Shown here: positions 8,400-37,476 of the stretch, piece by piece
Layout of the letters: each line of letters begins with the position of its first letter
Position numbering within the stretch: the first letter of the stretch is position 1
Source: Eledone cirrhosa
Taxonomy: Eukaryota
DNA length: 64,000 nt
Direction of reading: 5' to 3'
Assembly (NCBI GenBank): GCA_964016885.1
Contig: OZ024743.1
Span: forward strand, 344,410,001-344,474,000
Translations under genes and position numbers: made by a program
The notes under the pieces: generated by a model
Databases searched by the model: none
What the model was told of the DNA's origin: nothing
The model's input: the letters and a program-made list of their open reading frames with translations, nothing else

Positions 8400-10046
8400 A
8401 CACATGCTTACACACATACAAACCTACCCCCTACCCCACATAAATACATACCAATATACATACTTATATAGCTATATGGGTGTATATGAGTAGGTTTTTG
8501 TGTAAGGTTTCATCTTTATGTTTGAAGTGATATATCATATATGTGTCCATATCTCCTCCCCCTCTGTTCGAAATATTTTTGTATTAGTTTTGCGCGATAC
8601 ATGATGTGAAAGCCTGTGTTGAAACATGCATTCTACTTTAGGAGGGTAATCGCACTAATCAAAACATTAAAAACTCAATTTTAGAGAAGGGTAATTTCAT
8701 TATATATACCCTAACAATTAATTGATATTGTTTTTAATCCTTCCCGGAATGATGACAAGCAAAGCTGACCACGGCGTAATTTGATTTCAGAAAGTAAAGA
8801 TCCAGAGTAAATACTGCTACACATTTCGCCGACACTCAAACGTCTCTGCCAATCCAACAGCCGTTGGATAAATAAGTGCCAGTCTAGGACTATTACAGTT
8901 CTAGACGCGATGCCTTGCTATATCTTTCTCTACACCTCACGTTCTGATTTCGTTCGCGAAGTCACTTGTGCCAATCGATATTTCTCTTTATTTTTTCTTT
9001 AGACAACATCAGAGGCCTGTAGAGGAAAAGGTCTGCGTACATGAGTAACTGCTGACCTTCCACAAAATACCATGCTCAGACTCAAAGAGAAACTTTCCAT
9101 GAACAAACCTATTTCTGCTATGATTGAATTTAACTTCCCCAGACTAAAAAAAAAATGCTTATAAGGTGCTCTTGTATTTTGAATCGACCACAGAAGCATC
9201 ACTACGGCCATTACCATCCACACATAGGAAACAGTCATTGCTATAATTATGAACCTTACCAACACCCACGGCATCACCCCTAAAACTACACACATCATCA
9301 CTATTACGATGACAATGACACGATCATCATCATCGCAATCATCATCAGCAGCATCTCCCCCACTGCTCCCACTACCAAAAACAGCAGCAGCACCACCACA
9401 ACTACCAGCATGGTCAGGATGATGATAATGAGCATCATCATCGCAATCATCATGAGCAACACCTCCCCCACTACCAAAAGCACCTCACCACCACAGCTAC
9501 CAGCATTATCATGATCAAGATGATGATGATCATCTCTTTTTTTTTATCAACCGCCATCATATAATAGAAATAACAATGATGATAATATTAAAATAAATAT
9601 TAATATTAATAAGGTATTGTTAATAACAATGGTTTCTGGTTTAAGCACAAGGCCAGCAATTCGAAGAGGCGGGGAAAGTCGATTAAATCGAACCCAGTAT
9701 GTTACTGGTACTTTATTTTATTGAACTCTTAAGGATGGAAGGCAAAGTTAACCTCGGCGGGATTTGAACCCAGACCGTAAAGGGCCGTAACTCTATGCCA
9801 CAAAGCATGTTGTCCGACCCTCTACCGATACTGCCGGTCCATCCCCCTTAACAATAATAATTGTTTCTACTTTTGGCACAAGGCCAGCAATTACCCAGTG
9901 CATTACTGGTACTTTATTTTATCGACCCCGTAAGGATGAAAGGCAAAGTTAACCTCGGCGGGATTTGAACTCAGAACATAAAGGGAGGTAACTCTATGCT
10001 TCAAAGCATGGTGTCCGATCCTCTACCTTTATAATAATAATAACAA

Positions 10047-10490
10047 TGATTTCTTTATAGGCCACTGCAGCAGATTAAGGACCTATACAAAGAGAGTTTA
10101 CGACATTAAGGTGGGCTTTACATAGAAATGAGAAGAAAAAAGGGTGAACTTGTATACAAAGTATACAATTTGGGTATACATTGTATACAATTATATAAGG
10201 CATTCAGTCCTGCTGTTACACAGAGCTGAATACCTAAGGCTAATTGAGAAACCCCTCAAATCCATTATTACTTTGATCACCAGGGATGAACGCTCTCTCC
10301 CAACTATTGTTGTCTGACCTATAGACACAAGATCAGAGTAGTCCTATCCACTCTTACTCTTTTCTCTACTTACTTTTTCTCTTCGGTAAATGTACTGAAG
10401 AAGACCTTTTCCCTCTCCGCCTTCACTTTCCTTTCCAAGTAGAAAAGAAAGTGTGAGTGGACAGGAAGGTGCACTCCTTTGATATATTTA
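10047..10490 (-). mobile_element. Tx1/L1-clade LINE 3' fragment
   Basis: The minus strand encodes FFFYLERKVKAEREKV, matching FFKFHLERKVRVEREVL of the full-length copies. The 3' end is ggcctataaagaaatcatt. Confidence 0.65.
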
Positions 10491-11151
10491 CCCCCCCCCC
10501 CCCCTCCTCCCCCCAAAATAGGTAAATGTAATATTTGTTTCTATTTTTGGCACAAGGCCAGCAATTACCCGGTGTATTACTGGTTCTTTATTTTATCGAC
10601 CCCGTAAGGATGAAAGGCAAAGTTAACCTCGGCGGGATTAGGGGCATAACTCCATGCTGCAAAGCAAGGTGTCTGACTCTCTACCGATACTGCCAATCCA
10701 CCGTCAATGTAATAATAATAATTGTTTCTACTTTAGGCACAAGGCCATCAATTTGGGGGGAGCGGAAAGTCGATTAAATCGACCCTAGTGTATTACCGGT
10801 GCTTTATTTTCTCCACCCCGTAAGGATGAAAGGCAAAGCTAACCTCGGCAGGATTTGAACTCAGATCGTAAAGGGGCGTAACCCTATGCCATAAAGCATA
10901 TTGTTCGACGCTTTACCGATACTGCCAATCTACCAATAATTGATTCTACTTTCGGTATAAGGTCAGCAAATTGAAGAGGAGGGGAAAGTCGATTAAATCG
11001 ACCCCAGGGCATTACGGGTGCTTTATTTTATCGACCCTGTAGCGATGAAAGGCAAAGCTAACCTCGGTGGGATTTTAACTCAGAACGTAAAGGTCATAAC
11101 ACTCTACCAGGAAGCAGTGTGTTCGAAGCTCTACTGATAATAGTAATAATA

Positions 11152-11506
11152 ATGTATTGTTGATGCTGCTTCACCGTGGGACCACAGTGTAGGCGAGAAG
11201 GAAAGTGAGAAAGTTGAAGAGTGAAATCAGGAAAGTGTGGAGAATCAGACACGTAGAAGTGGTACTGATTGTGGTTGGTGCACTGGCAACAGGAAGAAGA
11301 AGGATGGGTGCATGGCTTGAAAAGGAATTAACATCAGGACAAGATCGTTCCAGAAACCAGCATTGCTAGGAACAGTAAGGATTCCAAAGAAGAGTGTTGG
11401 AAAGTTAAAGGAAAAGGAGGGACCCAAAGGAGTTTAGCCCGTTGGTTATGGTTCGCTCTTTTGGTACAGTGTTAGTATAACATTTGCCAGAACACAAGCG
11501 TTACGA
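11152..11506 (+). mobile_element. Dong/R4-type LINE 3' fragment (restriction-like endonuclease region) in (TAA)n
   Basis: Degenerate translation IVDAASPWDHSVGEKESEKV..EIRKVWRIRHVEVVLIVVGALATG..FQKPALLGTVRI, flanked by taataat repeats. Confidence 0.7.
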
Positions 11507-11631
11507 ATAATAATAATAATAATTGTTTCTACTTTTGGCACAAGGCCAGCAATTATTCCAATGCATTACTGGTACTATATATTATCGACCCCGTAAGGAT
11601 GAAAGGCAAAGTTAACCTCGGTAAAGAAGAT

Positions 11632-11749
11632 CTTTACAGCACCTAGGTTTCCCAAGCGGTCACCCATCTAAGTACTAACTAGGCTCGACGTTGCTTAACT
11701 TCGGTGATCGCACGAGAACCGGTGTTGTCAGCGTGATATGGCCGTAAAT
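11632..11749 (-). rRNA. 5S rRNA sequence, full length, forming the head of a chimeric SINE rather than a canonical gene
   Basis: Minus strand reads atttacggccatatcacgctgacaacaccggttctcgtgcgatcaccgaagttaagcaacgtcgagcctagttagtacttagatgggtgaccgcttgggaaacctaggtgctgtaaag, a typical animal 5S sequence with A and C boxes. Confidence 0.93.
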
Positions 11750-13131
11750 AATAATAATAATAGTGGTTTCTTATATAGGCACAAGGCCAGCAATATTTTT
11801 TTGTGGGAGGGGGGGGGCATTAAATTGACCCCAGTGCATTACTGGTACTTTATTTTATCGACCCACTAAGGGGATGAAAGGCAAAGTTAACCTCGGCGGT
11901 ATTTGAACTCAGAACGTAAAGGGCCATAATTTTATGCTACAAAGCATGGTGTCTGACGCTTAGGATTATGATGATAATGATGATAATCAGGGAGGAGGGA
12001 GAGCACGATGCTGATTAAGGTTATGATGATGGTGATAATGATGATAACGATGTTGACAATAATAATTGGTTCTACTTTTGTCACAAGGCCAGCAATTACC
12101 CAGTACATTACTGGTACTTTATTTTATCGACCGCGTAAAGATGAACGGTAAAGTTAACCTTGGCGGGATTTGAACTCAGAATGGAAAGGGCCGTAACTCT
12201 ATGCGTCAAAGCATGGCGTCCGACTCTCTACCGATACTGCCAATCCAGACAATAATAATGGTTTCTTATATAGGCACAAGGCCAGCATTTTGGGGGGAGG
12301 GGAAAGTCGATTAAATCGACCCAAGTGCGGGAACGGTACTTTATTTTACCAACCCCGTAAGGATGAAAGGCAAAGTGAACCTCGGCGGGATTTGAACTCA
12401 GATCATAAAGAGCCGTCACTCTATGCTGCAAAGCATGGCGTCCGACCCTCTACCGATACTGACAATCCACTGCCCTGATCCAGACAATAATAATGATATA
12501 CAGAAACAGCAGACATCTACCTTATCCACACCACTATGTTATCTCAATGCCATAACGCCATCTCCTAACAACAACAACAACAACAACAGCAGCAGCAGCA
12601 GCAGCAGAGGCAACAACAACAACAACAACAACAACAACAACGCTAACAACGAAATGAAATACTGCAACGAGAACAACACAACAACAACAGGAGCGGAAAA
12701 TGCAGCAACAATAACAAATAACAACAATTACACTGATGATAACGATAACATTATCCCTGCATAAATAACTAACTAGATAAATACGTATAAATAAATACCC
12801 TAAAATAAAAGAGTTTTAAAGACAAAAAGCAGCTACAAGAACAACACAAAAATGTTGGGGAGGAGAAGAAGAAAGACTTTAAGATCTCATTCCTTTGTTT
12901 GTTTGCGAATGATAGCTAATCTTGAGGTTGTTTGTGCGACATGTTAGTTTCTTGTTTTTTGTGTTCACCATAATTGTTAATCCGCTAGTGAATGGCAGAA
13001 ATATATTGACAAGTTTAAAGCCCTTACAACTAAATCGACTCATAGAAATGTTGAAAAGAATAAAGTGTATATATGTGTGTGTACGAGAATACACACACAT
13101 ATACCACATGTATGAATGTGACATATATATG

Positions 13132-30869: not shown

Positions 30870-31861
30870 TGTGTGTGTGTGTGTGTGCGTGCGTGCGTGC
30901 GTGTATGCGTGTGTCTCTCTCTCTATATATATATACAAATGTGCTTGTGTTGCGGGAGTGTGAGATAGGAGTTGTGTTGGGCCTAGAAACAAAATCAACG
31001 AAACGAAACACGAAAGAATGAAAGAAAACAAAGGAAGGTAAACGATGTGGACGGAGATCGGAGACGAGAGAGCATGAACGCAAACTGTATAAAGAAGCGA
31101 GGAAGGAATGTTGGAAAAGATTAAGAAAACTGTGTACAGACTGTGTGGATAGCAAAACAAAGGGAAGCCATTTTGAAATGATAAGGAATGACATAAGATT
31201 TTGATATGTTGGTGTTGATGTTGATATTGTTGTTGTTTGTCTTAGTCTAAGACTAATTCCAGTTGAGGTCCTGTCGCTACAAACATGGATTATGACGAGA
31301 CGTAAATTTAATAAACATAAATAATCCCTTTGTTTAACGAAATGTAAAAATACAACGGCAACAATAAGTTACACAAACTACAACACTAAACAATAACAAT
31401 GGCAATCATAATGGTAATCTTAATAGCAATAACTACAACAACAACAGGAACAACAGGGACATCAAAAACAACAACAATAACAAAAACAACAAAAACAGTA
31501 ACGGCACGAAGAACAACAACCATAATAACATCATCAACTCAACAATAACAACAATAACAACAATAACAACAACAATAACAATAATAATAATAATGATTTG
31601 ATTTATTGGCCACAAGGGCCGACATATAGGGGACAATACAAAAGACTGGCACAGTGGGGTTTTACAGAAAAATCGAGTAAACAATGTGAATAACAATAAC
31701 AAAGTAACAATAAAGTAACAATAAAATTACAACAAGAAACAATTCTCCAATAGGGGGGGATGACCACTTAGGGTTCGCTCAGGTACCCCACCAGTCCTGA
31801 ACGACCCGACGCTTCGAGAGCACCCTGGAAGGGCACCCCTCTCCTCTTCAAATTTACCTAC

Positions 31862-34800
31862 CTACAGCCGCATGACCAGAGTAGGCCCACTCACACGGGC
31901 CATTCTCGCCACATTCACCCACCTTTCAGCAAATGTACTGGGGGGCAGCACTTCTCTCTCCACCCTCACCTTCCTTTCCAAGTGAAACTTGAAAAAGTTG
32001 ATGAGGGATTGGCCGAAGAGAAAAGTGTCTGTCTTCAGTCCTTTAAACCTCGTCCACCATACAACCTCTTTCGCTACTGCCACCAGAGAGAGGAAAATTT
32101 CCTGCCCTTCCTGGCCAAAAGAAGGCGGCGGGTCGATCTTCACTATGGACTCGGCCGATAGCCGGATCCGTTCTACACGCGACAACAGCTGTTCAACATA
32201 ACTCCACAAGTCAGTAATGCACGGACACTGGACGAGTGCGCGCAGAACGGTTTCGTCGTTCTGCGCGCATCTCGGGCAGGTCCGTCTGACAGCACTTCCG
32301 TGCCTGTAGAGTTTATCTCGAACCGGCAGTGCCCCCCGGTAGCACTGCCAAGCGAGGGATTTTTGGAAATTATCCATCGTCCCTGGTTTGAAAGTCCTCC
32401 GATACAGACTGGTTAGTTCGACTTCGTTGACTCCCAGAGCCTCTCCGAGTGCGTCGTCGCACTTGCCCACCACTAATCCTCTATAGAACTCGAGAGTTGA
32501 AGTTCCACTGACCGCATTGCCCGCCTGGTAGAGGGCAGTGAGTGCCTGGCAACATTCCAGATGCCAGTCACCCAGTCTCGGTCTCTTCTTGACCCAGGAC
32601 TAAAACTCAGTCAAAGAAACGAGCTACGGAAAGGCCCGTCTGACAAACGGCGACCACACCTGTTCACCGTTTAGGCAGAATATCTGGAGATGCCGCACCC
32701 TCAGCGCGTGCTTGCGCATCATTAGCCACGGCATGCCCAGCCCTCCACATATAGGGTGCTGGCAGCAGATGGACCGCCTGACCAGCGGAACCGGATCCCT
32801 CCACAAGAATTTGAAGAGGAGCCACTCTAAGATGGCGAGGCGCGAACGGGGGCAAGGGACGACAGTCAGACGGTAGTAGATGATGGACGCGATGTACGCG
32901 TTCGCCACCTCCGCCCGACCTTTCAGTGATAGCTTTATGCCAGCCCATTTCTGGGTGAGACTGACTACCCTGCCCGTCACTTCGTCCCAATTCTTATCCA
33001 CCTGGACGTCTGGCCCGAACCAAACCCCTAGCAACTTTACCGGTCCGTCCAACGCCTAACGACGCTGTTGGACGGCATGGACTTTCCTCTCCAGGTGCCG
33101 AGTTGCAAGCCCACTGACTTTTCCGGGTTAAGTTTTGCTCCCGTCAACCTTTCATATTCCTCCAATAAGTTGCCGACCACCTCGATTTCTGAGGTGTCCG
33201 ACACCATCACGGTGATGTCGTCTGCATAAGCCGACACAGCCTTTCCGCGTCCCGGTTCGATCGGGATGCCCTGCAACAGCTCCAGCTTCCGCAGTAAAGG
33301 CTCGAGAGTCAATACGTACAGAAGGGAGGAGAGAGGGCACCCTTGACGGACCGATCGGGAGACCTGAAACGATTCCGAGAGGTGGCCATTAATGTTGACC
33401 ATCGAGCAGGTGCCGCTGTACATTGCAGCGATCCAGCTTCTGAAGACGGGGCCGAAGCCAGCCGCTTTGAGGACAGCCTGCAGGTACCGATGTTCGACCC
33501 TATCGAATGCTTTCGATTGATCGAAATTGATCAGAGCCCCACCGAAGCCAGGTTTACACCCTACTCTCTCTATGATGTTTCGCATTAGGTGGAGGTTGTC
33601 GTGTATGGACCTGGTTGGGATTGCGCGAGTTTGCGCCTCCCCAACCAAATCCCCGACGACAAGCGCCAACCTCTTCGCTAACACCCTGGCCAAAATCTTA
33701 AACTCTGTGTTGAGCAGAGTTATGGGCCTGAAATTGTCTAATGTGTCCCTCTTGTTCTCGTCTTTCCTTATCAGCGTCACTACGCCCCGGCTCACAGAAC
33801 TGGGAATACTCCCGTTTTGCTGCCAGTTGCAGTAGAGGGCTTCGAGAAGATTGGAGACAAGTCTGGCATATTTACGTAAAGCTCGTAGGGCAAACCATCC
33901 AAACCGGGTGACTTGCGCCTCATGCAGCCGACAAGGGCATCCTGAATCTCGGCTGAAGTAATTGGCTTTTCGCAGCGCCCAGCATCAGCTGTCGAGAGTT
34001 GCGGCAAGCCATCGAGGTAGGGACTGAAGTCCGCCACCATCTCTGACCCGCCACTCCCCCGAACAACCGAGCAAAATGCTGGCGAAAGGCCTCACACATC
34101 CTCTTGGAATCGCTCAGCTCGTGTCCGTCTCGGTCTGTCAAAGACCGAATCTTGGTTTTATTACCACGCTGCGCCTCTGCCACGCGGGCCCATCGAACAA
34201 CTTTGGTTCCCTCGTTTCTCAGAGCACGCGCCTTAGCTCTGACAATGCAACCTTCGCGTTTCGCCTTGAAGAAATGGTCTAATGCCATTCTCGCCGCTAG
34301 CACATCAGTTGCAATGCCACTACCAATAGCCTCGTCTAACTTATCTACCAACTCCCCCTCCTTCCTATTTTTCTCTAATGCTACTTCTTTGTTAAACTCT
34401 ATCGGCATTACTCTAATCTCTCTTTTGAAAGCCCTCCCATCTATTGTTGACGACTCCCCCTGTCAACTTTTTCTTAACTAAATTGTTGACCTGGTCCCTG
34501 TAAGCCTTACGTGCCGGAAATGACATGTTTAGCTTCTAGTAACCAGGTCCTAACCTACGCGTCTTATCTAGGTCGACCATACAGATCACAAACTTGAATA
34601 GGCGACCGTTTCAAAACGTGGACAGCTTACACTAATTTTGTCTATTTTTCTAATGAATATCCTGTCTATATACGATCTAGATGACCCTATGCGGTTAGCC
34701 CAGGTCCACACTGGCGCATTAGGGAAATCTAGTCGATACCTGTCAGACAGTTGGAACTGGCTGATCAGGTTCTTGAGGCTTTTGCACCTCCCGCTCCTAT

Positions 34801-35269
34801 CGGATACTCCCACACAGTCCCAGTGTGCGTCTAAGATGCCGTTCCAGTCCCCCGCTAACAGTAAACGGCGAGACGTGGCCAGAAAGGCTTCCAGGCGTCT
34901 AAACAAGTCCTGCCGTCCTGCCCCAGTAGGAGAATAGACGGCCAGCAGTCTAAAGGCACCACCTTCGTTATCGTTCACGTCCAGGACCACCAACTTCCCG
35001 TCCAGGTCGCGGAAGATCGACCTTACCTCGAGATCCAGGCCTTTCCTAAACAGCACTGCCACCCCACCTCCCATTCCCGGTCGGCTAACAGATGCAAAGA
35101 TCTGATAGTCGTCGAAAATGGGGGCTCGTGCGCGCGTGCCGGAAATCCTGGTCTCGCTGACGGCAATTACATCCATTTCTAGAGACCTGAGGTCGTTGAG
35201 CAGGTGACCCTGCTTCCAAGACGAGCCCAGGCCTCGAACATTTAAACATCCTACTCTTAATACGGTCAT
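31862..35269 (-). pseudogene. Tx1 copy A ORF2 (APE endonuclease, reverse transcriptase), frameshifted
   Basis: ORF fragments 34586..35269, 33920..34408, 33792..34040, 33037..33795, 32624..33052 and 31862..32473. Confidence 0.9.
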
Positions 35270-35301
35270 GTTGGCAGGTTAAAAAGAGAGAGAGGATAGG
35301 T

Positions 35302-37271
35302 TTACTTACCTTCCAGGCTCTTGTGAAGGTCGGGATGTTCGACCTCCATAGATGGTGGGGTTTCTTTTGGGAACCCCTTTAAAAGTCTTGAAGTTGGTTT
35401 TACGTTCGGGGTTCCTACGTCCTGAGGAAAGCTGTCTCGTATTTCTTTATATACATCGATCGACATTCGCACCAGAACCAAATCTTCCGGCACGCGAAAT
35501 ATGCTCGATTTAAAAATTCCCCCCTCTTTTTGTATATTTTCACTTCGTGCTACGAGGCCCATCAGTTCCTTGTTGGTCCTCCTGACGAGCACAAAGTTTT
35601 GTATGTTTTGTTGGTGTGATTTTATTTGTTTGCGTGGCCGTGGTGGTGATGGTTTTGGTGGTGTTGTTTCGGTTGCGTCTGTTTGTTGTGAGTGCGGTGT
35701 CTGTGGTTTCAGATGTATGTATATTTGTTCTTGCGTCTGTTTAGGTTGTTTGCGTTTGGGGGATTCTGGTGATGGTGATGGTGGTGTTGATGTTGGTGTT
35801 ATTGGAGAGATGTTTGCGTGGGTGGTGTCTGCGTTTTTTTTATTGTGGGTGATTTTGTGCTTTGTTGAGTTTTTTTTTTCTTTTTGTGTTTCCTTTTTTG
35901 TATTTTGGGGGATTTTGGTTTTCCTTCATCTTCACTACTGGTAGATGAGGGGTCTGTGTCTGTAAGTGTGTTTGTATGTATGTTTATGGTGTTATTGGTG
36001 TGTGTATTTTTGGGGGGAGGAAGAATTTGACAGCTTTCCTCGTTTCCCCCCTGGGTGGTCAATGTTGGTGGTGGTCTATCTATTGGTGTTGTTGTTGGTG
36101 GTTTTTCCGGTGCTGGTGTTTGTTGTGGTCCTCGCCCCGGCGTCGGCAGCAGTGGAGCCTTTCGACCCCTTGCCTCTTTCAGTAGTTGAGGGCAGAAGGC
36201 TCGCAAATTGGTTTTTTCCCCACAAACAAAACACTGCGGCCTTTTGCCTTCGGTCATAATGTGAATGACCGTCCCATTCTGAAGGCGCATGTGGTCCGGG
36301 ATTGTCTTCACATTCTCGGGCCTGATCTGGAGAAGGATCTCCAGGTTAACCCCGGACCAGTCCTCTCTGCCTGTTCTGGTCACTTCTATAGGAACGGTAT
36401 CCGTCCCCTCCACAATAAGACACATCCCAGAAGCCACCACATGTCAAGTCCTGGTGGGATTCTGGGAATGTGGAGACGGGCTGTTCTTTTTCCCATGTGG
36501 GAGGGGTACATTATGACCTTGCTGGTTTTGCAAGGAGTCATAGCGTGTTTCATAGCGAGGGCTTCTGACTTGAACAACACCGAAATCGTGCCGTACTGTC
36601 TGCCCCTCTCTGTGTACTGGGTGTCTTCTCTGATCCACCTCAGCGCGACTCCGACATCTTCTTGTGGGATTAAAGCTGCCCTTTTGGTTTGTGCTGAGAT
36701 GCATCTATAATGCACCGTTCTGCGCTCCACTGCCTCAATAGCTTCTACCGGGACAGATAAGTTGGCCCAGGTTTGCTCTTGCTTGATGAGCTTCCATGCC
36801 TGGGCCAACTTTTCATCTTTGTTTGAGAGGTCCATGTTGAAGCATGGCCTCTTCTTTGCTGCTGCCGCAGCGAAAGTGTTCTTCTTGTTTTCGTTGGGGG
36901 TGTTGTTGTCGTTGTTCTTGTTGGTGTTGTTGTTAGATCTGTCGCTGTTATCATAGTTGTCTTTGTTGCCACCGTTGTTCTCGGTGCAGTTGGTATTGTT
37001 GCTGTTGGTGTTGTCGCTATTTGTTTAGTGGTGTTGATATTGTTGTTGTATTTGTTATTTTTTTTTTGTTATCTGTATTTTCGTTGTCGCTGTTACTGTC
37101 ATTTTTTTCAAAATTAGAGTTCTCATTGGTATCATTGGTGTCTTTGTTTACATTGTTTGTCGTGGTGTTTGTGTTATCAATTTGTGTTAATTTCGTTGTT
37201 GTGCTCCTCGCAACTTCTACGTCGTTGTGGCACGAACGCAGACATATCGCTGGGGGGCGTGGCTCAGCCAT
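35302..37271 (-). pseudogene. Tx1 copy A ORF1 (gag-like zinc knuckle), frameshifted
   Basis: Fragments 37017..37271, 36386..36835, 35799..36440 and 35302..35592, similar to ORF1 of copy B. Confidence 0.75.
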
Positions 37272-37476
37272 GTTATTTTTTTCTTCGTAAATTTTTTAAC
37301 ATGTAAAAAAAGTTCAAATATTTGGGCCAAAAGACCAAATATTATACTTTCCCCTTCACGGGGCAAAGTCTAAGGGCTTATATCCCTTACACAACAAGAA
37401 ATATTTAACAACAAATAATTTTAACAGGCAAATAAAGCGACTTACTGTGAGCGAGCAAAATACGTCCGCTTAGACC

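Follow-up and report, generated by a model that had tools for sequence, protein, structure and literature searches.

A 5S rRNA sequence joined to the 3′ half of a SINE, on the minus strand of the 64,000-nucleotide stretch of Eledone cirrhosa DNA analysed here (the window), is probably a single chimeric retrocopy of 5S RNA and a 5′-truncated tRNA-SINE, which likely arose in one insertion through a template jump by a LINE reverse transcriptase. Joins of this kind recur independently in the genome, with varied 5S alleles, trailers, partners and entry points, and they involve U6 as well as 5S. The window copy itself is most likely a dead-end pseudogene, without detected progeny and about 3–4% away from its nearest relatives.

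Results

A 5S retrocopy joined to the 3′ half of a SINE

The partner of the 5S sequence is an abundant tRNA-derived SINE of ~188 nt, for which we use the working name SINE-A. Its head was called tRNA-like from the appearance of its A and B boxes and from the label in the initial annotation; ARAGORN found no tRNA genes in the window. Read along the minus strand, the locus begins with the end of a preceding, 5′-truncated SINE-A copy (11763–11960, recognised from its sequence and motif matches), followed by an (ATT)n target run that doubles as the tail of that copy (11750–11762), a complete 5S retrocopy starting at 11749 (11631–11749), the stretch ATCTTCTTT (11631–11623), a single A (11622), the SINE-A body (11525–11621) and a last (ATT)n run (11506–11524), which is the tail or right copy of the target microsatellite.

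The 5S sequence matches RF00001 over the whole model (11749–11631, 105.9 bits, E = 3e-22), the sole Rfam match within the window; its helices are paired, its internal promoter region is present and its allele is of an older type (A102, T112). The layout given in the initial annotation, a full 5S, a linker and a SINE body with (ATT)n/(TAA)n on both sides, is borne out by this match, by the paired helices and by the sequence. Between 5S and SINE lies a 3′ trailer of the 5S primary transcript, a short U-rich terminator remnant without T4, together with one extra A at the joint (11622–11631), the trailer class being tied to the 5S allele. In the alignment, the SINE-A body enters at about position 90 of 188, just 3′ of the B box, and runs for ~97 nt, from CCGAGG at 11621 to GTAGAAAC at 11525.

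Compared with the nearest array genes, the window 5S shows 8 differences in 120 nt, three of them at 117–119; it differs from the nearest dispersed head at 3 of 115 positions, and the SINE-A body differs from the nearest other copies at 4 of 97. The motif TATATAA, supplied by the 3′ end of the preceding SINE-A copy, lies at −28 to −22 of the 5S start, and the first TTTT lies 217 nt beyond the 5S end. With its internal promoter region, this late TTTT and the TATATAA at −28, the window copy looks transcribable. Folded alone, the 228-nt unit gives a z-score of −0.12. A near-complete 5S with no T4 terminator before the LINE-type tail is found in 44 of 99 classified chimeras, the window copy included.

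The SINE-A core motif has 12 matches in the window, counting the chimera, and about ten SINE-A copies, in short and long subfamily forms, are stacked head-to-tail in each other's (ATT)n tails on the minus strand at 9640–12470 (about 9.6–12.5 kb). At the start of the window, perfect 310-bp tandem repeats form two adjoining blocks (1–2324; 4.1 and 3.4 copies, 100% matches).

Dispersed 5S retrocopies and their partners

The genome holds at least ~130 dispersed 5S retrocopies. An exact pattern for the 5S 3′ end gave 630 matches, apparently mostly array units, of which the first 100 were covered. Patterns that exclude the array trailer returned 92 dispersed loci and one array unit, and about 40 further dispersed 5S loci, counted by eye, carry the other trailer type; 1.1–3 kb were fetched around most of the dispersed loci. 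The patterns select for an intact 5S 3′ end, with 3′-truncated copies outside the count.

The patterns excluding the array trailer provide a partner-blind set, of which 90 of the 92 loci were matched and used. A sense retroposon 3′ part lies within 35 nt of the 5S at 70 of the 90 loci, a figure that may include as many as about 9 self-matches, since the partner references were natural copies taken from the same loci; the background for the same test is 23 of 270 random flank positions. The antisense orientation was the better fit at none of the 90 loci, and at 20 of them the script found no partner, several entering (TA)n directly.

From a wider set of 132 loci, enriched for look-alikes of the window copy, 101 were classified. 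Their partners are SINE-A (26), a 65-nt tail 'B' (29), a tail 'E' (3), a second tRNA-SINE group 'C' with its relatives (40) and two LINE 3′ ends (3), which we take to be CR1-like and RLE-like from their protein motifs. Most chimeras (81 of 99) begin within 12 nt of the 5S 5′ end. Entry into SINE-A falls at positions 1–15 in 20 of 27 chimeras, the others entering at 32, 67, 76, 90, 90, 91 and 128; among plain SINE-A copies, 8 of 93 start at 85–95.

At C28:66800689, part of the 5S 5′ end recurs in inverted orientation after a 5S copy, ~260 bp from a divergent 5S–SINE chimera, an arrangement that is possibly the result of twin priming. At another locus (L141), a 5′-truncated 5S is flanked on either side by the LINE sequence of the CR1-like 3′ end in which it lies, reflecting either an out-and-back jump or a later insertion.

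Target duplications around the whole unit

Exact duplications of at least 8 nt surround the whole 5S and SINE-A unit at 12 of 23 loci, compared with a permutation mean of 1.8, and 12 was reached in none of 1000 permutations. The 23 are SINE-A chimeras with an intact tail, two gene-type loci (L216 and L217) being left out, and their flanks were re-paired within the class; the result rests on this within-class permutation, the low-complexity label having been judged too generous. Several of the duplications are non-repetitive and 12–27 nt long. For partner B, duplications were found at 13 of 29 loci against 6.9 expected, mostly of (TA)n microsatellite, and for partner C at 9 of 28 against 6.2, a weak excess (47 of 1000 permutations). 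What precedes the 5S varies with the partner: the upstream sequence is of ATT type at 15 of 23 loci with SINE-A and at 1 of 57 with B or C (p = 1e-9), whereas TATATA precedes the 5S at 1 of 23 and 33 of 57, respectively. A match of 6–7 nt around the 5S alone occurs at 3 of 99 loci, the window locus not among them.

In the window copy, the whole unit is flanked by a 14-nt duplication that is pure microsatellite and not diagnostic alone, because the upstream (ATT)n also serves as tail to the SINE-A copy before it; we therefore infer the single-event origin of the window copy from its class. No (ATT)n intervenes between 5S and SINE at this locus, and array spacer is lacking on the upstream side. 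Nor does the SINE-A 5′ half occur upstream of the copy, which rules out that a 5S was inserted into a pre-existing SINE. The initial annotation had weighed an independent 5S pseudogene with a target duplication of its own. This did not hold, as the window 5S has no such duplication, the SINE 5′ half is absent upstream and sister chimeras carry whole-unit duplications; the genome-wide junction search that it proposed did return a unique junction, as it foresaw for that case, yet a duplication of the 5S alone is missing.

5S alleles, trailers and 3′ ends

The linker of the initial annotation is present, but it is not a new module; it is the 3′ trailer of an older 5S gene type. A trailer of the ATyTCCT type lies 3′ of 31 of 50 copies with the 5S allele of the window, and a gene-like orphon with spacer-like downstream DNA (L051) bears the window-type trailer. 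The 5S allele and the trailer are tightly associated (p = 2e-13), and allele and partner loosely (p = 0.05). Mean identity to the array gene drops from 94% to 88% across allele types. Together with the linkage of allele and trailer, this drop indicates that the heads sample successive versions of the 5S gene, with the window copy of an older type.

Tandem 5S arrays lie on contig C4 at about 92.40–93.23 Mb (L009–L030, L167), in units of ~1380 and ~870 bp, and in their spacer, past the terminator, part of the 5S 3′ end recurs in degenerate form. Among public sequencing runs, which possibly stem from other individuals or species, the best run shares 0.39 of the sought words. Among the contig pieces and reads listed from such runs, none spans the 5S/SINE junction, a result that carries no weight in either direction. 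In one run under another organism label (X15), all 5S contig depth at window position 11648 has the older allele at 5S position 102, and two further runs (X2 and X4) mostly have the array allele; in this small sample, the pattern is consistent with the older allele being ancestral.

The 5S 3′ ends in the chimeras are ragged, extended or oligo(A)-tailed. An A-run of at least 5 follows the 5S in 9 of 24 SINE-A chimeras and in 1 of 75 others (p = 6e-6), and the bias towards SINE-A is not absolute, as one further A-run has a C partner. Trimmed 5S ends with A-runs, some with interspersed G, are seen at L067, L077, L091, L095, L101, L142, L146, L154 and L086. Such ends look like oligoadenylated decay intermediates and are strongly biased towards the SINE-A/L1-Tx1-like partner. 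Separately, 18 dispersed 5S copies bear a trailer ATTTACTG(CTATTT) cut at many lengths (for example L008, L076, L079, L083 and L084). Its absence from the array units read points to a 5S gene type that has been lost or is missing from the assembly and whose terminator lies late.

U6 is joined to the same partners

The genome contains 48 U6 matches, 32 in an array and 16 dispersed. By the script, 8 of the 16 dispersed copies have the same partners as 5S, namely SINE-A (4), B (3) and the RLE-like end (1), and one U6 copy enters SINE-A at ~91, nearly the entry of the window copy, within an 8-nt duplication. Inspection by eye added two more U6 copies, with C and RLE-like partners, while two others look like genes. 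The joining process is not specific to 5S. The U6 array, on contig C19 at 31.78–31.84 Mb (L175–L202), comprises at least 32 genes in a ~1.8-kb unit with a variant 5′ stem, and two dispersed gene-like copies (L173 and L174) differ from it at three positions.

The junction and the question of a SINE3 family

Even with up to 3 mismatches allowed, the 25-nt 5S/SINE junction is unique in the genome. When the 228-nt unit was searched against the 3.0-Gb genome, with 40 of 2843 candidates scored, at least two further near-full-length matches were returned, together with the tandem arrays on contig C4 and numerous matches to 5S alone. An exact pattern placed the 5S 3′ end within 30 nt of the SINE position seen in the window at two loci, the window copy and L062. 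The 5S end and trailer of L062 are of the current array type, whereas those of the window copy are of the older type, and the two 5S heads differ at 5 of 110 positions. Identical junctions were found in 2 pairs among 99 chimeras, and in the pair that was aligned the SINE subfamily ends differ.

Among 67 SINE-A bodies placed in a tree, the 19 with a 5S head are spread over several places, with 14 changes of the label against a shuffled mean of 16.7; the label is slightly clustered, 35 of 500 shuffles being as low. Monophyly of the 19 is rejected (AU p = 0.00012) in a tree that is poorly resolved, with 3 of 64 branches strongly supported.

The head of the window copy shares at least 60% of its positions with 5S rRNA over 60 nt or more, as SINEBase asks of a SINE3, and is followed by a body and a LINE-related 3′ tail. 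For a family, SINEBase further requires that 100 or more interspersed copies exist and that they have a common origin (PMC3531059). By the exact pattern, there is one copy of the junction and two with this entry, and neither a shared junction nor shared diagnostic changes absent from the cellular gene point to a common origin. Instead, a small RNA and a retroposon 3′ end are joined directly, the RNA on the 5′ side and both in one orientation, and the events are independent, with varied junctions and partners and without self-propagation; the distinction that we apply, between families and sums of independent chimeras, is also drawn in PMC4494074. The unique junction, the non-monophyly and a copy number far below 100 largely rule out, for this assembly, a SINE3 family as the reading of the window copy, and the new family that the initial annotation had offered falls with them, only two loci having a 5S end near this entry.

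A separate pair of loci shares a 776-bp block at 92% identity (L216:3043–3782 and L217:2460–3234), in which 230 bp or more of array spacer precede a gene-type 5S and a near full-length SINE-A takes the place of the 5S terminator. This block is a DNA-level duplicate and, compared with the window copy, a better candidate for a SINE3 master; the matches listed for its junction include no dispersed progeny.

A candidate LINE machinery

Outside the chimera, the minus strand of the window carries a broken LINE (31595–37476) with Pfam matches to Exo_endo_phos, RVT_1 and zf-RVT. We label it L1/Tx1-like, using 'Tx1-like' for what we take to be microsatellite-targeting elements of the L1 group. The nearest solved structure to its reverse transcriptase is LINE-1 ORF2p (E = 1.9e-27, against 5e-20 for R2). 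It starts after an (ATT)n run at 37476 and ends at 31595 in CCTTGTG...AAATC(ATT)n, and the 3′ motif CCTTGTG..A..AAA.C(ATT)n is common to this LINE and SINE-A; an alignment of eight tails has 18 invariant columns, 6 of them within the shared tail. The short shared motif and the shared target suggest that this L1/Tx1-like LINE is likely the partner family of SINE-A. At one locus (L086), a 5S is joined through an A-run to a tail of this LINE type, with a 16-nt duplication around the unit.

Several broken L1/Tx1-like copies or ends with (ATT)n tails lie in the window (24.8–25.7, 31.6–37.5, 38.7–44.2 and 44.8 kb), alongside other broken RT-related frames at 14.1–17.6 kb and 37.4–38.5 kb and further ones, presumably Penelope-like, at 3.35–4.37 kb and 52.3–54.0 kb.

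Discussion

Our analysis favours a template jump during target-primed synthesis at the window locus. A protein of an L1/Tx1-like LINE would bind the SINE-A 3′ tail, nick an (ATT)n tract and prime the cDNA. The reverse transcriptase would copy ~97 nt and leave its SINE template where the tRNA-like head adjoins the body, at position ~90, at which plain copies are also truncated, and would continue onto a 5S primary transcript ending in a short U-tract, copying it to its 5′ end. The whole unit would then integrate between one target duplication, as shown at sister loci, the window locus being ambiguous in this respect. The template-switch chimera that the initial annotation offered as its other reading is supported by the unique junction and by the independent, varied events; its title, in which 5S replaces a tRNA head, fits the product, but U6 and at least five other partners show the same join.

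An identical product would result if a 5S RNA and a cleaved SINE RNA were ligated by an RtcB-like activity, as in human U6/L1, and the joined RNA were then retrotransposed, only the joining step being different. The chimeras resemble those of U6 and L1 in their sense orientation and complete 5S 3′ ends (PMC11838501, PMC6789731), U6 joins in too, and the internal entry of the window copy could be a nuclease cut, leaving a 5′-OH, at the end of the tRNA-like head. We nevertheless prefer a template jump, because most joins bring together the 5′ terminus of a full-length Pol III SINE and a ragged, extended or adenylated 5S end. Pol III RNAs such as SINE-A and 5S carry 5′-triphosphate and 3′-OH ends. 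RtcB ligation, as characterised in PMC6789731, needs a 2′,3′-cyclic phosphate and a 5′-OH and is poor with a 5′-triphosphate or a 3′-OH; with 20 of 27 chimeras entering SINE-A at the very 5′ end of a Pol III RNA, and with ragged, extended or oligo(A)-tailed 5S ends that would imply a 3′-OH, ligation seems unlikely to us, though it stays conceivable for the window copy with its internal entry.

We regard it as quite unlikely that the locus records two separate events, be it a 5S pseudogene and a truncated SINE entering the same (ATT)n tract in succession or a join by DNA recombination. SINE-A copies are stacked in each other's tails close by, and joins at the DNA level do exist in this genome, as the fusion of gene-type 5S and array spacer to SINE-A at L216 and L217 shows. 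However, no (ATT)n separates 5S from SINE in the window copy, its 5S has no duplication of its own, neither array spacer nor the SINE 5′ half is found upstream, and sister loci have whole-unit duplications. We consider it highly improbable that the locus belongs to, or is the master of, a young SINE3 family, headed by 5S and transcribed through the 5S promoter. Head, body and LINE-type tail are all present, T4 is lacking until 217 nt past the 5S end, a TATA-like 7-mer stands at −28 and the architecture of L062 is almost identical; but the junction is unique, L062 has another 5S allele and another trailer and departs from the window copy at 5 of 110 head positions, and identical junctions are confined to 2 pairs in 99, the aligned one with different SINE subfamily ends. 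The 5S-headed bodies are, moreover, non-monophyletic and far below the 100 copies of SINEBase.

Chimeras formed by template jumping have precedents. In vertebrates, U6 is joined to L1, L2, RTE and their SINEs, with U6-L1, platypus U6-L2 and U6-Mon-1, and lizard U6-AnolisSINE2 and U6-RTE as examples, and chimeras of this type are said to be the only ones that stringent LINEs form (PMC4476161). The chimeras described here are like these in having a small Pol III RNA 5′ and a truncated retroposon 3′ in one orientation within one target duplication, and in arising as separate events with several LINE clades and their SINEs as partners. They are unlike them in that it is mainly 5S that was captured, bearing precursor trailers or oligo(A), in that the partners are mostly SINEs, and in that the present host lies outside the vertebrates surveyed in that study. 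Human 5S/LINE-1 chimeras, in which 5S sequence is likewise co-inserted with a non-LTR element, are described as frequently antisense and truncated (PMC11838501); here, none of 90 loci fits better in antisense and 81 of 99 are near-complete at the 5S 5′ end, in a set selected for an intact 3′ end. For the 5S-headed SINEs of vertebrates, the proposed origin is a switch from SINE to 5S rRNA (PMC4824008, PMC4758252). SINE3 families and 5S-headed DeuSINEs such as AmnSINE1, going by their description in PMC4824008, PMC4758252 and PMC4494074, amplified from a master copy, whereas the window locus is single-copy and shares no junction. In the literature searched (subscription journals, Repbase and supplements lay outside its scope), we found no description of such 5S chimeras in a cephalopod and no report of full-length, sense 5S-on-SINE chimeras at such a scale. 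The general mechanism is already known, and the 5S chimera population of this genome is a useful new variant of it.

Taken singly, the window locus is an ordinary chimeric pseudogene, and its annotation as a SINE3 family or as a 5S gene is unwarranted; a 5S–SINE chimera provides material from which a 5S-headed SINE could arise and is not itself a new family. As a group, the chimeras record which retroposon machineries have been active, which 5S 3′ ends have existed (precursor trailers and oligo(A)) and older 5S alleles that are absent from the array units read. A bolder reading, which is conceivable but doubtful, would make this genome a SINE3 nursery, in which nearly every 5S retrocopy is owed to a tail-specific LINE jumping onto 5S RNA, some chimeras are Pol III-transcribed masters ready for retrotransposition and the machinery prefers oligoadenylated 5S decay intermediates as acceptors. 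If that were true, the founding step of 5S-headed SINE families could be caught and tested before amplification. Joining of 5S to a SINE is seen about a hundred times here, with several partners and with none of the products detectably amplified, and this genome therefore makes it possible to measure the number of new heads on offer against which the rare founding of a family must be set.
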